From positions 1 to 5,061 of the IMG/VR virus record IMGVR_UViG_3300013741_000048: a stretch of DNA of 5,061 bases; one strand, 5' to 3'. Both the position numbers and the translations under genes were made by a program. Each line of letters opens with the position of its first letter. Position 1 is the stretch's first letter. Under the pieces are notes generated by a model. The model saw only the letters and a list, made by a program, of their open reading frames with translations, was not told the DNA's origin and made no database searches. Shown here one piece after another: positions 1-5,061 of the stretch. Origin of the DNA: a virus (lineage: Duplodnaviria; Heunggongvirae; Uroviricota; Caudoviricetes).

Positions 1-603
1 CAAAAGTGCCTGTAAGACAATAGGTTTTACCCTCTAACTCTATCGAAGCCCCTACATCAATAGGCAGCCTGGTCGCCAAACCATCCACCACCCCACTTTC
101 CAAGTCACATCCTGTGAAGTCTACTAATGCCTTATGTAGAGTTAAACTCTCATCTTCAGTAATAACCCCATCTTTAAGAATTTCCTTTACAAGTGCATAA
201 AGTTTTTTTCCTGGGTAGTTGTTCTTCAAAGCTCCATTTTGCTCAAGCCACCAATTAAGATATCTTATTTCTTCTTGAGTTAAGTTCCGATCAGCAATTA
301 ATCCTTTACATAGTCCATTAAGTAAATGGACATCTACATCCTTGGAGTAAAAATCAATTTCAGGGATATCAAGAATTTCCCTCTGTATTTGGAGAAGGCT
401 ATTTTTAAGGTCATCACGTTCTTCTGATGTGATTATTCCATCCGCAAGAATATCCGACACCCGTGCTGATAGACTTTTTATAACTCCATTATTGATAATC
501 TGCTTTGCTTCAAGTAACCATGTATCTAAGTAAAGAACCTCCTCTTCACGGACAACTCCATCTGCAANNNNNNNNNNTTAAAAGCGTAAAGCGCGTCTTC
601 CAT
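1..603 (-). CDS. Partial CDS (C-terminus beyond window start): hypothetical protein with four tandem TerB-like helical repeats followed by a BRCT-like motif; N-terminus interrupted by an N-run
   Basis: Hand translation of the minus strand gives an uninterrupted frame from 565 down to 2 (188 codons, no stop) in AT-rich DNA. It reads ADGVVREEEVLYLDTWL...ADGIITSEERDDL...ADRNLTQEEIRYL...KDGVITEDESLTLHKAL...IELEGKTYCLTGTF. Probable start is ATG at 601-603 (minus), 4 nt downstream of GGAGG (complement of 608-612), giving MEDALYAF before the gap at 568-577. It is absent from the ORF track because it has no Met and no stop inside the window. Domain names are from motif recognition, not a search. Confidence 0.6.
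568..577. other. Run of 10 N (assembly gap or masked bases) inside the N-terminal region of the minus-strand CDS
   Basis: Literal n characters. With exactly 10 bases the ATG at 601-603 is out of frame with the open frame below 565 (a TAA would be read at 578-580), so the true gap length is probably not 10. Confidence 0.95.
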
Positions 604-666: not shown

Positions 667-695
667 TTGACAATATTCAAAACCACAACTAAATT
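667..695 (+). promoter_or_regulatory. Candidate sigma70 promoter (TTGACA, 17-bp spacer, TAAATT) pointing toward the 68-aa ORF, flanked by direct repeats TTCAAA(A)CCACA at 648-658 and 676-687
   Basis: Perfect -35 hexamer TTGACA at 667-672, 17-nt spacer, TAAATT at 690-695 (4/6 match to TATAAT). Near-identical 11-12 nt direct repeats bracket the -35. Sequence-only prediction. Confidence 0.35.
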
Positions 696-786
696 ACAAC
701 TTAAAGATGTTAAAACAACGAACAGGCAGGACGCCCACGAAGTAGCCGCCTGGGGCATATGAAGTCCAGGATGATTCGTTAGCAAC

Positions 787-810
787 AAAAAAGCGCCCTA
801 CAGGACGCTT
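787..810 (-). terminator. Rho-independent terminator-like hairpin on the minus strand
   Basis: Plus strand reads AAAAAA GCGCCC TACA GGACGC TT. On the minus-strand transcript this is a GC-rich stem (one G-U wobble) with a 4-nt loop followed by a run of 6 U. On the plus strand the same stem has a C-A mismatch and no U-run. Confidence 0.5.
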
Positions 811-868
811 AGCTCTTTAACAATCTGGTCCCCATCAACAAGTAACTGATAACTTGAGGAGGTGTGAA

Positions 869-1075
869 ATGCACAAAACAGAACCAAAAATCGTCGCGCC
901 CGGATACACAAATGAGGAAATTTACGAGTGGATGGCAAAGAAGCTGGCAGCTATAAACCAGCTTCGTGAAGTGCTGTCTTATCGACAGGAAACAATAGAC
1001 TCCTTAAAAAAACTGGATCAGGAAATCACGGTTTTATCACAGGATGTTACTTTAGATATTGTGCAGACAAATTAG
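869..1075 (+). CDS. Small hypothetical protein (68 aa), predicted helical/coiled-coil
   Basis: ATG at 869 is 6 nt downstream of GAGGAGG (856-862); TAG stop at 1073-1075. The ORF track starts at the upstream in-frame TTG (854). Its 3' end overlaps the convergent 144-aa gene by 29 nt. No family recognised. Confidence 0.45.
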   Translation: MHKTEPKIVAPGYTNEEIYEWMAKKLAAINQLREVLSYRQETIDSLKKLDQEITVLSQDVTLDIVQTN

Positions 1076-1481
1076 GATCCCATTCATTTTCGTCAAAATC
1101 ATCAAAGTGATGAATTTGTGATCTCCAGTCTCGATAATCTAAAAATTTCTGGGCGGTTACGCTTATTTTATCAAGCATGAGTTCATCCTGAATTGAAAGA
1201 AGAAGTTCATCAAATTTCATCTCATTAATCTGTTTTGGCATCCAGTGATGCTTCATCAGAATAAGGTGAACCAGAGCTTTTTTCCCATTCAACTGATTAT
1301 AGGGAGTGCCGAATTTCTTCCGGTGCTCATGTAAGACAAGGTCCAGAAGAGTAAGTAATGTTGCCCTTGATTCAACTTTGCTTATTTCGACTGATGACAC
1401 TCCCCCACTGATTTCAATGCCCCGATACTTTCCAACATTTTCACAGTGGGATTTGTACAGCGTATAGATATTACCGGACAT
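1047..1481 (-). CDS. Hypothetical protein (144 aa), AT-rich, opposite orientation to the phage operon
   Basis: Complete ORF from ATG (complement of 1479-1481) to TAA (complement of 1047-1049), with a purine-rich stretch (AAAAGGAAAAG) just upstream. No family recognised from sequence. A weak R-x4-H motif (RSQIHH) near the C-terminus is HEPN-like but unconvincing. Confidence 0.6.
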   Translation of the reverse strand: MSGNIYTLYKSHCENVGKYRGIEISGGVSSVEISKVESRATLLTLLDLVLHEHRKKFGTPYNQLNGKKALVHLILMKHHWMPKQINEMKFDELLLSIQDELMLDKISVTAQKFLDYRDWRSQIHHFDDFDENEWDPNLSAQYLK

Positions 1482-1496
1482 TTCTTTTCCTTTTGC

Positions 1497-1544
1497 GTTG
1501 TTGGGGATAACCAGATTAACCGAATCCTTGTTGTTGGGGAATAA
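1497..1544. repeat. Two direct repeats GTTGTTGGGGA(A)TAA (1497-1510 and 1530-1544), 33 bp apart, immediately upstream of the 144-aa gene start
   Basis: Exact 14/15-nt match seen in sequence, with weaker similarity extending about 11 nt to the 3' side (CCAGATTAACC vs CTAGGTCCACC). The position fits operator or iteron-like sites in the promoter region of the minus-strand gene. Confidence 0.7.
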
Positions 1545-1765
1545 CTAGGTCCACCTCGCCTGATGTGGCTAAAAGCAGGCACATAACAGCTAAGTATTTT
1601 CAACCAGAGAGAATCCTTAGCGTTGTGGTGAATGCGGCTCAGCGCACGCGGGTTAAGGTTGAGGCTGACAGTCGACCTTCTGTGGATACCCACCCGCCTG
1701 GTGTGCAACCTTCGCCAGGCACCGGGAGGCACCCGGCACCACAACTTTATGCTGCGTGTAGTCTT

Positions 1766-1812
1766 GGCGGTACCAGCTTGTACCCTTGCTTCCGGCTGGT
1801 ACCGTCCTTTTT
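1766..1812 (+). terminator. Rho-independent terminator-like hairpin on the plus strand, upstream of yfdP
   Basis: Perfect 10-bp stem CGGTACCAGC (1768-1777) / GCTGGTACCG (1795-1804), extendable with G-U pairs, followed by C then TTTTT (1808-1812). There is no U-run on the opposite strand. Confidence 0.5.
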
Positions 1813-1901
1813 ACAAAACAGAGAAGAGCATCACCGGACGACGGGCTCATAACCCAATCCATCCGGGCGGCTGTCACCGCAGGTGTTCTTCTCTGTTTTG
1901 T
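1813..1901. repeat. Perfect 15-bp inverted repeat ACAAAACAGAGAAGA (1813-1827) / TCTTCTCTGTTTTGT (1887-1901) flanking a 59-bp GC-rich spacer
   Basis: Exact reverse-complement match read directly from the sequence. It starts right after the terminator U-tract and ends 48 nt before the yfdP start codon. Confidence 0.85.
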
Positions 1902-1949
1902 GGAGAAACCAACCGACCTTGCAGGGTCGATATGATGAGGAGCAGCAAA

Positions 1950-2312
1950 ATGGCTAGCGAACGCAGTACTGATGTGCAGGCATTTATCGGGGAGCTGGAC
2001 GGCGGCGTATTTGAAACCAAAATCGGCGCAGTTCTCAGTGAAGTCGCTTCCGGTGTGATGAACACGAAAACCAAAGGTAAGGTCTCACTCAACCTGGAAA
2101 TCGAACCATTTGATGAGAACCGTGTGAAAATCAAACACAAACTCTCATATGTTCGCCCGACTAACCGCGGGAAAATTTCCGAAGAAGACACCACCGAAAC
2201 GCCGATGTATGTCAATCGCGGTGGTCGTCTGACTATTCTGCAGGAAGACCAGGGACAATTACTGACTCTTGCCGGTGAACCTGACGGAAAACTCCGCGCA
2301 GCAGGTCATTAA
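1950..2312 (+). CDS. yfdP: YfdP-like prophage protein of unknown function (120 aa)
   Basis: ATG at 1950 is 7 nt downstream of AGGAG (1938-1942). The product MASERSTDVQAFIGELDGG... matches my recollection of E. coli CPS-53 YfdP in sequence and length. The longer track ORF (1632..2312) extends into the GC-rich island with a non-protein-like translation. Confidence 0.8.
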   Translation: MASERSTDVQAFIGELDGGVFETKIGAVLSEVASGVMNTKTKGKVSLNLEIEPFDENRVKIKHKLSYVRPTNRGKISEEDTTETPMYVNRGGRLTILQEDQGQLLTLAGEPDGKLRAAGH

Positions 2313-2377
2313 TATCGTTCTTAATTAACTGATTATTTATCTCATCACTGAATATCTTTATATAATGAGGACTTATT

Positions 2378-3202
2378 ATGTCTCAGAACTTAGACGCAAC
2401 CGCAATTAATCAAATCCATGCCCTTATTTCTGCTCAGGGTGTTAATGAAATTATCAGTAAGATTGGTGCCGATGCTGTGGCATTGCCTGAGAATTTCCGC
2501 ATTCATGATCTGGAAAAATTTAATTTAAATCGCTTCCGTTTCCGTGGTGCGCTTTCCACTGCCAGCATCGATGACTTTACCCGTTATTCTAAAGATCTTG
2601 CAGATGAAGGCACCCGCTGCTTTATCGATGCTGATAATATGCGTGCCGTCAGTGTGCTTAACCTGGGTACTATTGATGAACCAGGTCACGCCGATAACAC
2701 CGCCACTCTCAAACTGAAAAAGACAGCACCGTTCTCTGCTCTGTTGTCTGTTAATGGCGAGCGTAATTCCCAGAAGTCACTGGCAGAATGGATTGAAGAC
2801 TGGGCCGACTACCTTGTGGGCTTTGATGCTAATGGTGACGCTATTCAGGCAACAAAAGCGGCTGCGGCTGTCCGTAAAATCACGATTGAAGCAAACCAGA
2901 CCGCTGATTTTGAAGATAATGACTTCAGCGGCAAACGCTCCCTGATGGAGTCTGTCGAAGCGAAGACCAAAGACATTATGCCAGTGGCATTTGAATTTAA
3001 ATGCGTTCCGTTTGAAGGTCTGAAAGAACGTTCTTTTAAATTACGCCTCAGCATTATCACTGGCGATCGTCCTGTACTTGTTCTGCGCATTATTCAGCTG
3101 GAGGCTGTGCAGGAAGAAATGGCTAACGAATTTCGTGATCTGCTTGTTGAGAAATTCAAGGACAGCAAAGTAGAAACCTTTATTGGTACTTTCACCGCCT
3201 GA
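2378..3202 (+). CDS. yfdQ: YfdQ-like prophage protein (274 aa; DUF2303 family as recalled)
   Basis: Complete ORF with RBS GAGG (2367-2370) upstream of ATG 2378. Length and sequence match my recollection of CPS-53 YfdQ. Family assignment is from memory, not a search. Confidence 0.88.
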
Positions 3203-3214
3203 TTTGATTACTGC

Positions 3215-3236
3215 AAATGCCCCTGCGGGGGCATTT
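3215..3236 (+). terminator. Hairpin AAATGCCCC-TGC-GGGGGCATTT downstream of yfdQ; weak or bidirectional terminator-like element
   Basis: 9-bp inverted repeat with a GC core and 3-4 nt loop, followed by TTTAT. The U-tract is short, so termination is probably partial. Confidence 0.4.
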
Positions 3237-3329
3237 ATGGAAACGTAATTGACTCAATAATCGCCGGATGGTGAGGGCTTCCTTTTACCAGAATTCAGCG
3301 CGGTGCAGCGCATATACGTGGAGAACAAA

Positions 3330-3866
3330 ATGTCATTTATTAAAACTTTTTCCGGGAAGCATTTTTATTATGACAGGATAAATAAAGACGATATCGTGAT
3401 TAACGATATCGCAGTTTCCCTTTCAAATATCTGTCGCTTTGCCGGTCATCTTTCACACTTCTACAGCGTCGCCCAACATGCGGTGCTTTGCAGCCAGCTG
3501 GTGCCGCAGGAATTTGCTTTTGAAGCGTTAATGCATGATGCAACAGAAGCGTATTGTCAGGACATTCCCGCACCACTGAAACGCCTTCTTCCTGACTATA
3601 AACGGATGGAAGAAAAAATAGACGCCGTAATCCGTGAGAAATACGGGTTACCCCCGGTTATGAGTACACCCGTGAAATATGCCGATCTCATCATGCTGGC
3701 AACCGAACGCCGCGATCTCGGGCTTGATGATGGCTCTTTCTGGCCTGTACTGGAAGGCATCCCGGCAACAGAGATGTTCAACGTGATTCCACTGGCACCG
3801 GGCCATGCCTACGGGATGTTTATGGAACGCTTTAACGAATTATCGGAGTTACGCAAATGCGCATGA
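3330..3866 (+). CDS. yfdR: HD-domain phosphohydrolase, YfdR-like 5'-deoxynucleotidase (178 aa)
   Basis: ATG at 3330 is 6 nt downstream of GGAG (3320-3323); the track ORF starts at an upstream in-frame GTG (3303). The protein has H...HD spacing (SVAQHAV ... LMHDATEAY) typical of HD-domain metal-dependent phosphohydrolases. Length matches my recollection of E. coli YfdR. Confidence 0.85.
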   Translation: MSFIKTFSGKHFYYDRINKDDIVINDIAVSLSNICRFAGHLSHFYSVAQHAVLCSQLVPQEFAFEALMHDATEAYCQDIPAPLKRLLPDYKRMEEKIDAVIREKYGLPPVMSTPVKYADLIMLATERRDLGLDDGSFWPVLEGIPATEMFNVIPLAPGHAYGMFMERFNELSELRKCA

Positions 3867-4219
3867 ATGTTTTCGAAATGGAAGGGTTTCTTCGCGGGAA
3901 ATGTGTACCGCGAGATCTGAAAGTGAATGAAACGGATGCTGAATACCTGGTGCGTAAATTCGATGCGCTTGAAGCTAAATGTGCAGCACAGGAAAACAAA
4001 GTAATACCAGTGTCAACTGAACTGCCACCAGCAAATGAAAGTGTTCTGTTATTTGATGCTAATGGAGAAGGCTGGCTGATTGGCTGGCGTTCTCTCTGGT
4101 ACACCTGGGGACAAAAAGAAACCGGAGAATGGCAGTGGACATTTCAGGTCGGGGACCTTGAAAACGTCAATATCACTCACTGGGCAGTAATGCCAAAAGC
4201 ACCGGAGGCTGGAGCATAA
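3857..4219 (+). CDS. yfdS: YfdS-like phage protein (120 aa; DUF551 as recalled)
   Basis: ATG 3857 follows GGAG (3845-3848). An alternative ATG at 3863 forms an ATGA overlap with the yfdR stop (3864-3866). The C-terminal region (WQWTF...ITHWAVMPKAPE) resembles DUF551 phage proteins. Confidence 0.8.
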   Translation: MRMNVFEMEGFLRGKCVPRDLKVNETDAEYLVRKFDALEAKCAAQENKVIPVSTELPPANESVLLFDANGEGWLIGWRSLWYTWGQKETGEWQWTFQVGDLENVNITHWAVMPKAPEAGA

Positions 4220-4524
4220 TGACCACTTTTACCGACAAAGAACTGATTAAAGAAATTAAAGAGCGTATCAGCAGCCTTGACGTGCGAGACGATATTGAGC
4301 GCCGTGCTTATGAAATCGCACTCGTATCTCTGGAAGTAGAGCCAGATGAACGCGAAGCCTATGAATTATTCATGGAAAAGCGTTTCGGTGACTTAGTAGA
4401 TCGTCGGAGAGCAAAAAACGGCGATAACGAATACATGGCATGGGATATGACTCTCGGTTGGATCGTCTGGCAGCAACGAGCTGGTATCCATTTCTCAACA
4501 ATGTCACAGCAAGAGGTGAAATAA
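4219..4524 (+). CDS. yfdT: YfdT-like small phage early protein (101 aa), function unknown
   Basis: TAATG overlap with the yfdS stop (4217-4219 / 4219-4221), GGAG at 4211-4214. Length and sequence match my recollection of CPS-53 YfdT. Confidence 0.78.
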   Translation: MTTFTDKELIKEIKERISSLDVRDDIERRAYEIALVSLEVEPDEREAYELFMEKRFGDLVDRRRAKNGDNEYMAWDMTLGWIVWQQRAGIHFSTMSQQEVK

Positions 4525-4874
4525 TGGAGCCATACAGCCTCACACTCGATGAGGCCTGTCAGTTTCTTAAGATATCCAGACCAACCGCCACCAACTGGAT
4601 ACGAACAGGCCGCCTACAGGCAACACGTAAAGATCCAACCAAGCCAAAATCTCCTTACCTCACAACACGGCAAGCCTGCATTGCGGCGCTTCAGTCTCCG
4701 CTGCATACTGTCCAGGTGAGCGCGGGTGATGGCATAACAGAGGAAAGAAAATGTCACTCTTCCGCAGAGGTGAAATATGGTACGCCAGTTTCACATTGCC
4801 GAACGGTAAAAGATTTAAACAGTCTCTTGGAACAAAGGACAAAAGGCAGGCGACAGAACTCCATGACAAGCTAA
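4524..4874 (+). CDS. xis: Excisionase, P22-type Xis (116 aa)
   Basis: ATG 4524 is 7 nt downstream of GAGG (4513-4516) and overlaps the yfdT stop (TAATG). The N-terminus [26 protein letters not shown] is a typical excisionase/AlpA-type winged-helix motif. Its 3' end overlaps the integrase start. The track ORF (4440..4874) is an in-frame upstream extension overlapping yfdT and is not preferred. Confidence 0.85.
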
Positions 4875-5061
4875 AGGCTGAAGCATGGCGGGTCAGCAAA
4901 CTTGGTGAAATACCTGATATAACGTTCGAGGAAGCGTGTGTCAGGTGGCTTGAAGAGAAAGCACATAAAAAATCACTGGACGATGACAAAAGCCGGATCG
5001 GATTCTGGCTTCAACATTTCGCAGGAATGCAACTAAGAGACATTACTGAATCAAAAATTTA
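4751..5061 (+). CDS. int: Tyrosine integrase, P22/e14-type; N-terminal ~103 codons only, continues beyond window end
   Basis: ATG 4751 with GAGG at 4739-4742. The N-terminus [48 protein letters not shown]... is the characteristic arm-binding N-terminal domain of P22-family integrases (recalled). Frame is open to the last base. Confidence 0.92.

Follow-up and report, generated by a model that had tools for sequence, protein, structure and literature searches.

The window, by which we mean the whole 5,061-nt stretch analyzed here from a Caudoviricetes record (IMGVR_UViG_3300013741_000048), contains a 68-aa ORF (869–1075, plus strand) and a 144-aa gene (1047–1481, minus strand) that meet tail to tail. 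This arrangement had been proposed in a sequence-only reading of the same DNA and is confirmed by the ORF list; the strong RBS attributed to the 68-aa ORF is also present, as GAGGAGG at 856–862, six nt 5′ of the ATG. The pair is represented in RefSeq by WP_000549626.1 and WP_000016389.1. The features of the locus, with related loci designated by L numbers, are:

667–695, plus strand: inferred pL-like promoter, TTGACA-17-TAAATT, scoring 10/12 in a promoter scan
785–810, minus strand: predicted intrinsic terminator with an 8-bp GC-rich stem, a 4-nt loop and U6
812–823, plus strand: boxA, an exact GCTCTTTAACAA equal to the rrnB boxA core, in the pL leader 45 nt 5′ of the small ORF
822–842, plus strand: left arm of an inverted repeat that brackets the cargo, AATCTGGTCCCCATCAACAAG, kept in L094 and L106
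869–1075, plus strand: YdfC-family small protein, 68 aa, with a strong SD; first ORF of the putative pL operon
1047–1075: tail-to-tail overlap of the two coding regions, 29 nt
1047–1481, minus strand: ECs1072-family protein, 144 aa, all-helical and hydrophilic, antisense to the pL operon
1482–1550, minus strand: region upstream of the ECs1072 gene, with SD AAGGA, two direct repeats and a −10-like GTTAAT
1551–1581, minus strand: interleaved palindromes GCCTG..CAGGC and CCAC..GTGG, upstream of the putative ECs1072 promoter region

The window is the immunity-to-integrase arm of an SfV/SfIV/CPS-53-type lambdoid prophage. By megablast, positions 600–1950 match E. coli chromosomes and phages SfIV, Kati, and vB_EcoS-569R4 at 98–99% identity. 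Gene order was taken from L001, a RefSeq-annotated genome 98.8% identical to the window, and runs from a cI-like XRE repressor (+) and a BRCT-domain protein (−) through the hypothetical 68-aa protein (+) and the ECs1072 family phage-associated protein (−) to a frameshifted pseudo-CDS, followed by yfdP, yfdQ, yfdR, a DUF551 protein, yfdT, excisionase, and integrase (all +). Pfam identifies DUF2303, HD, DUF551, and HTH_17 in the downstream genes, and an STnc100-like sRNA (STnc100/PasD-like, with a DicF-like terminator) lies downstream of the pair, before yfdP.

The pair occupies a moron slot that has the cI repressor gene on one side and the early-left genes on the other. The slot takes other cargos using the same promoter region and terminator, as in L106 (E. 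coli 2003-3014), whose flanks are identical to the window up to 828 and from 1497 onward and enclose a 171-aa minus-strand gene with no small ORF. SfV shares with the window only the stretches 713–780 and 1551–4950, and carries orf33 in place of the pair. Because neither alternative cargo comes with the small ORF, we conclude that the small ORF travels with ECs1072. Of 5,426 complete E. coli genomes, 408 carry the cassette, and Salmonella ST64B as well as prophages of Klebsiella, Enterobacter, Citrobacter, and Serratia have diverged versions of it; a related-locus search of genome and viral contigs returned 99%-identical copies only.

The 144-aa protein matches NCBIfam NF033230 with 154.9 bits (cut-off 70) across profile positions 2–142 of 142, and phrog_5286 with E = 2.9e-89. 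A profile search against 1.84 billion representatives recovered 76 clusters of ECs1072 relatives, mostly 144–155 aa long, in which R54, H72, and W134 are invariant. Its AlphaFold model is confident and all-helical (pLDDT 83.6, pTM 0.83), with no significant fold relative by Foldseek (E at least 0.86 in the PDB and at least 0.47 in BFVD), and the protein has no match among PDB sequence profiles. It is hydrophilic, with a maximum 19-residue Kyte-Doolittle value of 0.84.

The 68-aa protein matches phrog_1744 (E = 4.8e-34) and, by tblastn, the annotated ydfC/YdfC family at 38–39% identity over 66 of 68 residues (E = 1e-8), with matches in 19 phage records from Qin- and PPompW-like phages. Its alignment with annotated YdfC gives the common motif EPxIIAPxYTxxEhYEWM. 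In the 68-aa protein the conserved N-terminal motif reads EPKIVAPGYTxEEIYEWM (family form EPxIIAPGY(S/T)xxEIYxWM) and falls, in the predicted model, within 14 disordered N-terminal residues that precede one long helix. The protein matches no curated Pfam or NCBIfam model and is hydrophilic (GRAVY −0.46; maximum 19-residue Kyte-Doolittle value 0.29). YdfC is a protein of the dicBF operon with no assigned function (PMC5069750). In the window and in SfIV the gene shares the family trait of standing at or near the head of an early operon under repressor control, with an sRNA further downstream. The sequence-only reading had overlooked both the YdfC-family identity and the position as first ORF of a CI-repressed pL operon behind boxA.

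Compared with its homologue in the metagenomic locus L006, the small ORF is 50% identical, with pS 0.69, pN 0.36, and ω 0.27, and with 25, 23, and 38 differences at codon positions 1, 2, and 3; it is intact in 84 of 85 copies from viral and genome contigs. The ω value, the codon-position pattern, and the intact copies together argue that it is protein-coding and under purifying selection. ECs1072 is intact in all 85 copies and encodes an identical protein in 82 of them despite many synonymous polymorphisms. Both genes are thus under purifying selection, as read from their substitution patterns. Neither has a Pfam match, and the PADLOC-DB v2.0.0 HMMs match neither protein nor five homologues, so the earlier statement that neither is recognizable as a toxin or antitoxin stands across Pfam, PADLOC, PDB sequence and fold, and BFVD fold searches. 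A literature search (ECs1072, the protein accessions, and STMMW_20121) found no functional study.

Downstream of the 144-aa gene, the terminator scan returned one canonical minus-strand terminator, at 810–785, in agreement with the earlier claim. Its stem, 810–791, is AAGCGTCCTGTAGGGCGCTT, followed by TTTTTT, and the scan found no further canonical minus-strand terminator between 1047 and 787. Read on the plus strand, 785–810 forms a hairpin within the pL leader, and boxA follows immediately 3′ of it. The hairpin is kept in L005, L006, and L094, where the L006 and L094 proteins are only 35–52% identical. The alternative minus-strand cargo of L106 stops 39 nt short of this hairpin, which can therefore be regarded as the minus-strand terminator of the slot. 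By its coordinates, the small ORF is nested between the ECs1072 gene and the terminator.

A minus-strand transcript would accordingly be expected to cross the whole small ORF and its RBS, as had been proposed, and the use of the same terminator in L106 strengthens this expectation. The geometry predicts complete antisense coverage of the small ORF by an RNA that would itself be a protein-coding mRNA. A 9-bp hairpin inside the small ORF (∼940–965) was considered as an earlier minus-strand terminator and rejected, as it has only three U and is not conserved; Rho may terminate the untranslated 3′ tail. In Serratia (L090) a terminator lies within the partner ORF, and in a subgroup with the pair in the late operon the U-tract of the hairpin is on the partner's strand, so that full-length antisense coverage is not universal. 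In Sakai, no terminator was found nearby.

In both the window and SfIV, the small ORF would be the first ORF of a CI-repressed pL operon. The pL-like promoter of the window carries operator-like repeats, AAGTTGT/ACAACTT, common to the cro-cI operator region of L001. At the same position SfIV has TTGACA-16-CATAAT (11/12) with TGTACC operator half-sites like those of the cro-cI operator, and its order is cI gene, terminator, near-consensus CI-operator promoter (pL), and then the small ORF first. The window differs from SfIV by a BRCT gene inserted between cI and the pL point. Good promoters also lie between cI and the partner in L100 and L105. Within 811–868 no sigma-70 promoter for the small ORF passes the promoter scan; the hexamer AACAAT, tried as its −10, is part of boxA.

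Taken from the sequence alone, the boxA consensus (T/C)GCTCTTTAACAA occurs in the pL leader downstream of the promoter. The 12-mer has one exact match, where 0.04 are expected at up to one mismatch. It is kept in L005, L006, and L106, and in L094 takes the form CGCTCTTTAAAAA; the rrnB boxA sequence is present in a primer in PMC2176067. The order, hairpin then boxA, is of the rrn type. We infer that pL transcription is Nus-factor antiterminated, and such antitermination would explain how it crosses ∼875 untranslated nt (1076–1949), a stretch that includes the antisense ECs1072 gene and the sRNA terminator, to yfdP and on through int.

The promoter of the ECs1072 gene probably lies in the upstream region 1482–1550. 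Here the 11-nt direct repeat TCCCCAACAAC occurs in two copies 33 nt apart (plus-strand GTTGTTGGGGA at 1497–1507 and 1530–1540), and the −10-like GTTAAT (plus-strand 1515–1520) precedes the second copy. Sakai has TATAAT, and other subgroups have an extended −10, TGnTATCnT, at the matching place. This upstream element is conserved more than the protein: L094, at 35% protein identity, has almost the same 60 nt ahead of its ATG, and both repeat copies there are altered together, from TCCCCAACAAC to TCCCCAACAGT.

Part of this region recurs in inverted orientation in front of the small ORF. Inverted repeats of ∼20 nt join 822–841 with 1498–1517 and 829–842 with 1527–1540, with duplex energies of −22 to −27 kcal/mol compared with about −9 ± 3 for shuffles; for the arm at 822–842 the value is −24.3 kcal/mol, against −10.7 ± 3.1. 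These repeats could allow the two ends of the minus-strand mRNA to pair with each other, or serve as recombination or protein-binding sites. Because an inverted copy of the ECs1072 upstream motif precedes the small ORF, the partner might have a promoter of its own.

We surveyed every reachable diverged ECs1072 homologue and inspected its surroundings. A convergent, 3′-overlapping YdfC-like partner was found in 14 of 15 diverged ECs1072 lineages (22–70% identity); L004 was the sole lineage examined in which the ECs1072 homologue has no partner. Overlaps across homologous pairs range from 14 to 317 nt:

The window: 29 nt
L005, E. albertii: 64 nt, partner frameshifted in an A-run
L006, metagenome: 44 nt
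L094, Logan assembly contig DRR517657: 80 nt
L090, Serratia: 14 nt
L091–093, Enterobacter: 107 nt
L089, Citrobacter: 86 nt, ORF uncalled by annotators
L098, Salmonella ST64B: 71 nt, ECs1072 homologue unannotated in AY055382, partner sb50
L099, Klebsiella phage KPP5665-2: 95 nt
L095, O157 Sakai Sp4, with the name-giving ECs1072 (now ECs_5703): 317 nt
L100, Logan assembly contig SRR23595540: 35 nt
L101, Logan assembly contig SRR31860991: 65 nt
L102, NCBI assembly GCA_035092465.1: 41 nt
L104, metagenome: 197 nt
L105, NCBI assembly GCA_001422605.1: 95 nt

The partner subfamilies are homologous to one another (hhalign probability 95% and 89%), and the two families co-diverge, their pairwise identities being correlated (Mantel r 0.825, p about 1e-4). 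At all loci that come with context, the partner runs in the direction of the phage operon and ECs1072 lies antisense to it. The rule applies at the head of the early-left operon downstream of cI (pL), in pR between cII and O (Sakai), downstream of cro (L104), and in the late operon, where the pair lies between Q and the holin gene (ST64B, Klebsiella, Enterobacter, Citrobacter). For the late-operon subgroup, a strong terminator on the partner's strand precedes the partner by ∼20 nt, a placement consistent with expression only after Q antitermination. Since the hairpin is kept at 35–52% protein identity, the ORFs are intact, and the small ORF has an ω of ∼0.27, the arrangement is beyond chance. 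The comparison thus confirms the convergent overlapping pair and shows it to be a conserved accessory cassette, made of two genes, of lambdoid prophages. Solitary YdfC-like genes also occur, in Qin-like dicBF-type operons with no ECs1072; together with the partner-less L004, they indicate that the link between YdfC and ECs1072 is not obligatory.

Transcription in lysogens has been reported for one diverged copy. Among the genes of prophage ST64B, STMMW_20121 was singled out as transcribed from its own promoter in lysogens, antisense to lytic genes and in almost all conditions (Owen et al. 2020, PMC7067206). This 435-nt gene (2090066–2090500) reached 61–269 TPM in 16 of 17 conditions and 4.9 in late stationary phase; the neighboring holin gene gave 0.3–33 TPM and the neighbor STMMW_20141 1.5–7 TPM (PMC7067206). 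STMMW_20121 is a homologue of the 144-aa gene, ∼30% identical to it, likewise 435 nt long, and facing the same kind of convergent partner: its 71-nt overlap with STMMW_20131 (360 nt) is the exact geometry of the ECs1072 homologue and sb50 in L098. STMMW_20131 itself gave 23–258 TPM in lysogens (PMC7067206). As annotated, the CDS of STMMW_20131 reaches upstream across the terminator hairpin, and its reads may for this reason represent constitutive PR′ leader RNA; equally well, the signal could reflect expression of the partner in lysogens. That the antisense arrangement sets a lysogeny-expressed gene against a gene of a lytic operon was likewise overlooked in the sequence-only reading.

Our best model, which we hold tentatively, is mutually exclusive lysogenic and lytic expression of the two genes, reinforced by antisense RNA, with the small protein perhaps countering ECs1072. 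In the lysogen, CI would shut off pL and ECs1072 alone would be transcribed, as seen for its ST64B homologue. The ECs1072 mRNA would carry a 3′ tail of ∼260 nt complementary to the small ORF, its RBS, and boxA, so that leaky partner mRNA would be silenced. Once CI is lost, boxA-modified transcription from pL would make the YdfC-like protein first and would then run head-on through ECs1072, shutting it off by transcriptional interference and RNA duplex formation. More speculatively, the small helical protein might bind and neutralize ECs1072 protein already present; ECs1072 might then act as an effector specific to lysogeny, whether by exclusion, by abortive infection, or in a toxin-like manner, with the partner as the antidote of the resident phage.

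The model draws on the architecture, the travel of the two genes as a unit, the orientation rule, co-divergence, purifying selection, and the ST64B RNA. We counted against it that neither protein has a recognizable fold or domain, which makes the effector and antidote roles conjecture, as well as the solitary YdfC-like genes and the partner-less L004, the STMMW_20131 signal in lysogens, the possible own promoter of the partner, and the non-universal antisense coverage. The earlier suggestion of cis-antisense control, as in toxin–antitoxin (TA) or abortive-infection modules, is upheld for the predicted antisense geometry, whereas no homology backs either kind of module.

The main rival, which we consider a serious reading on the unlikely side, makes the two genes neighbors only: the YdfC-like ORF would simply open the early-left operon, like ydfC in Qin dicBF, ECs1072 would be an unrelated, lysogeny-expressed moron that entered after it, and the antisense tail would be without regulatory effect, the overlap and distant terminator reflecting genome compaction. 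It would account for the YdfC-like genes of Qin-like phages that have no ECs1072, for the one partner-less ECs1072, and for a slot that accepts other cargos between the same promoter region and terminator, but those other cargos, at identical flanks in L106 and SfV, come without the small ORF. An overlap would also cost little where, as here, the C-terminal tails of both proteins are poorly conserved, and between the window and L005 a dS of 0.74 in ECs1072 and 0.18 in the small ORF shows recombination between the genes. Against mere adjacency, three different operon contexts contain the pair (pL; pR, in the cII-O interval; and the stretch from Q to the holin gene), co-divergence links the two families, and the overlap persists at 22–35% protein identity.

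Quite improbable, in our view, is a TA-like pair active in the lysogen, with ECs1072 as toxin and the YdfC-like protein as antitoxin or the reverse, both made continuously and their ratio set by the convergent overlap. Two small co-diverging proteins in a mobile cassette would suit such a pair, as would the motif-bearing inverted repeat in front of both genes and the lysogen RNA signal for both ST64B homologues; the partner's share of that signal, however, is explainable by PR′ leader RNA, and in SfIV the partner lies directly behind a CI-operator promoter. There is moreover no bicistronic operon and no toxin or antitoxin similarity in Pfam, NCBIfam, PADLOC, or PDB or BFVD structures. We reject the reading in which the 68-aa ORF is no gene and 811–1046 is merely the ECs1072 mRNA 3′ UTR or pL leader: the ORF is short, has no Pfam family, and is frameshifted in several database variants, with the E. 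albertii copy broken in an A-run, but its ω and pS against L006, its integrity in nearly all copies, a strong SD at optimal spacing, same-motif ORFs in 14 diverged lineages, and annotated YdfC genes all mark it as coding.

The locus was also compared with known prophage systems. In P22 sieB/esc/sas and lambda sieB, the prophage expresses an exclusion gene located within or beside the early-left region, and the phage escapes its own system; in P22 sieB/esc/sas, an antisense RNA shifts expression during lytic growth. The sas RNA is mentioned in this sense by Owen et al. (PMC7067206). Neither member of our pair has sequence or Pfam similarity to SieB. The sieB/esc system uses an internal in-frame start, whereas in our pair a protein gene of its own, convergent with the first, would supply the escape factor, and the antisense RNA, unlike sas, would be the putative effector mRNA itself. 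The pair is not known to confer exclusion.

The type I TA pairs txpA/RatA and bsrG/SR4 have 3′-overlapping convergent transcripts. So does yonT/SR6, a type I TA system on SPβ (PMC5848175). The pair described here resembles them as convergent prophage units with overlapping 3′ ends, one RNA being predicted to be cis-antisense to the other. Unlike them, both RNAs encode conserved hydrophilic proteins of 68 and 144 aa, and the locus has neither a small membrane toxin nor a dedicated non-coding antitoxin. The pair also departs from the established TA types: from type I in that both proteins are hydrophilic, unlike its small hydrophobic membrane toxins; and from type II in that the genes are convergent with a 3′ overlap instead of forming a co-directional autoregulated operon, and show no similarity to toxin or antitoxin families. 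Type III (ToxIN-like, with ∼34–45-nt tandem repeats upstream of a ToxN/AbiQ-type endoribonuclease), considered for the direct repeats in front of the 144-aa gene, was rejected as there are only two 11-nt repeats and no ToxN/Pfam or fold match.

The dicBF operon of Qin, ydfA-ydfB-ydfC-dicF-dicB-ydfD (PMC5069750), is similar in that a YdfC-family ORF stands close to the head of an early operon under repressor control; a long untranslated stretch with an sRNA (DicF there, STnc100/PasD-like here) comes next, ahead of small early genes. Qin-type operons differ from the window in that no ECs1072 lies antisense to the untranslated stretch. BstA of prophage BTP1, like STMMW_20121, is a lysogeny-expressed accessory locus, in the analogous place downstream of cI (PMC7067206), but it is unrelated in sequence and its self-immunity element is different. 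Already known were the ECs1072 family name and the flagging of one homologue as lysogeny-expressed; the account of STMMW_20121 in PMC7067206 leaves out the family, the partner gene, and the convergent architecture, and in the literature searched we found neither the partner gene nor the convergent architecture and its conservation described, nor the link to YdfC.

If the model of mutually exclusive expression holds, the YdfC family, in E. coli K-12 a y-gene of long standing, would gain its first role, and the model would describe a defense or toxin module whose effector and antidote lie on opposite strands and are switched by the lysis–lysogeny promoters. The more specific proposal, a new two-protein prophage system in which a defense or toxic effector of the dormant prophage is matched by an antidote encoded as the first ORF of the pL, pR, or Q-dependent late operon and the convergent, overlapping transcription keeps the two states apart, we judge unlikely; if it were true, solitary ydfC genes of other lambdoid phages' early operons, including Qin ydfC, would be counter-defense genes against ECs1072-carrying lysogens. 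Even with functionally unrelated proteins, the locus would be a clean natural case of a lysogeny-expressed gene placed head-on in a boxA-antiterminated lytic operon, useful for studies of transcriptional interference. The slot, with its fixed promoter, fixed terminator, and swappable cargo, is also a place to seek more prophage accessory genes. Upstream of the putative ECs1072 promoter, the palindromes at 1551–1581 are conserved in front of distant homologues and retained in SfV; they would form a candidate pseudoknot-like element in which 98.6% of cells are paired, with only two compensatory changes, both in L094.

The cassette formed by the YdfC-like small ORF and the ECs1072-family gene occupies a slot that holds different cargo in a sister prophage (L106, E. 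coli 2003-3014), whose promoter region, terminator and boxA are identical to the window's. The two loci have their flanks in common up to window position 828 and again from 1497 onwards. Partial matches to the cassette query occurred in ∼485 further complete E. coli genomes and, among the matches listed, covered the cassette ends or the right-hand edge only, a pattern consistent with swappable cargo. The features of the slot and its borders are:

L106 1201-1854, minus strand: cargo gene whose 171-aa product combines a coiled coil with CxxC...CxxC motifs
Window 812-823, plus strand: exact rrnB-type boxA core, GCTCTTTAACAA, in the pL leader immediately 3' of the 787-810 hairpin
Window 822-842 and 1498-1540: inverted repeats at the cargo borders
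L094 (Logan contig, DRR517657) 2928-2944 and 3608-3624: inverted repeats at the cargo borders
L094 2850-2871 and 3699-3720: pair of direct repeats of 22 nt with 95% identity, one at each cassette border, 849 nt apart

In three different cassettes the cargo is flanked by inverted repeats of ∼20 nt (AATCTGG..TATCCCCAACAAC). Base pairing between these repeats could bring together the two ends, 5' and 3', of the minus-strand mRNA (predicted dG −22 to −27 kcal/mol); alternatively, the repeats could serve as recombination or protein-binding sites. The 22-nt border repeats of L094 may be a remnant of cassette insertion or exchange. The boxA is kept in the E. albertii (L005), metagenomic (L006), L094 and L106 loci, and its presence in the pL leader suggests that the early-left operon would be under Nus-dependent antitermination.

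Further elements lie upstream of the ECs1072 gene and beyond it:

Window 1497-1507 and 1530-1540: 11-nt direct repeat in two exact copies at a spacing of 33 nt, GTTGTTGGGGA on the plus strand
Window 1551-1581, minus-strand sense: interleaved palindromes GCCTG..CAGGC and CCAC..GTGG
Window 1604-1815, plus strand: STnc100/PasD-family sRNA candidate (42.8 bits, E = 5e-7)

On the coding strand of the ECs1072 gene, each 11-nt repeat is followed by AAGGA, and both copies are altered in concert in L094, which suggests recognition by a shared, putative binding factor. The palindromes have the potential to fold into a pseudoknot. Distant phages conserve them ahead of their ECs1072 homologues, and they are also kept in SfV, which lacks the ECs1072 gene; two compensatory changes were found, both in one lineage. 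The sRNA candidate falls slightly short of the family's gathering score (47) and has a terminator hairpin at 1753-1807 that is also a weak DicF match; dicF occupies the equivalent position in the Qin dicBF operon. RefSeq annotates a frameshifted pseudo-CDS across it.

A further gene, probably an accessory or defense gene, lies between cI and pL:

Window 1-603, minus strand: gene for a 296-aa BRCT-domain protein with TerB-like repeats, incomplete at the window edge and partly masked by 10 N (568-577)

This insertion, present in some genomes only, overlaps the 3' end of cI in a near-identical RefSeq-annotated genome (L001). Its product matches phrog_3989 and, weakly, PADLOC PDC-S48 (E = 2.4e-7).

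The small ORF contains an A7 run (window 1003-1012) at which the E. albertii counterpart (L005 1070-1327) carries a +1 frameshift; frameshifts also occur in several singleton variants from the databases, and these changes could reflect assembly error or a slippage-prone site. The window's ECs1072 protein has two residue differences in all, G27 (not V) and M102 (not T), from the protein in 82 of the 85 other copies.

ECs1072 homologues lack annotation in the phage records of Salmonella ST64B (AY055382; L098 1845-2279) and Klebsiella phage KPP5665-2 (L099 1845-2291), and the annotated N-terminal extension of the ST64B partner, sb50, covers a terminator hairpin. In O157 Sakai prophage Sp4, the name-giving ECs1072 (now ECs_5703) lies between the cII-like ECs_1071 and the O gene; an unannotated YdfC-like frame, open for 169 codons (L095 29168-29677), overlaps it in antisense by 317 nt.
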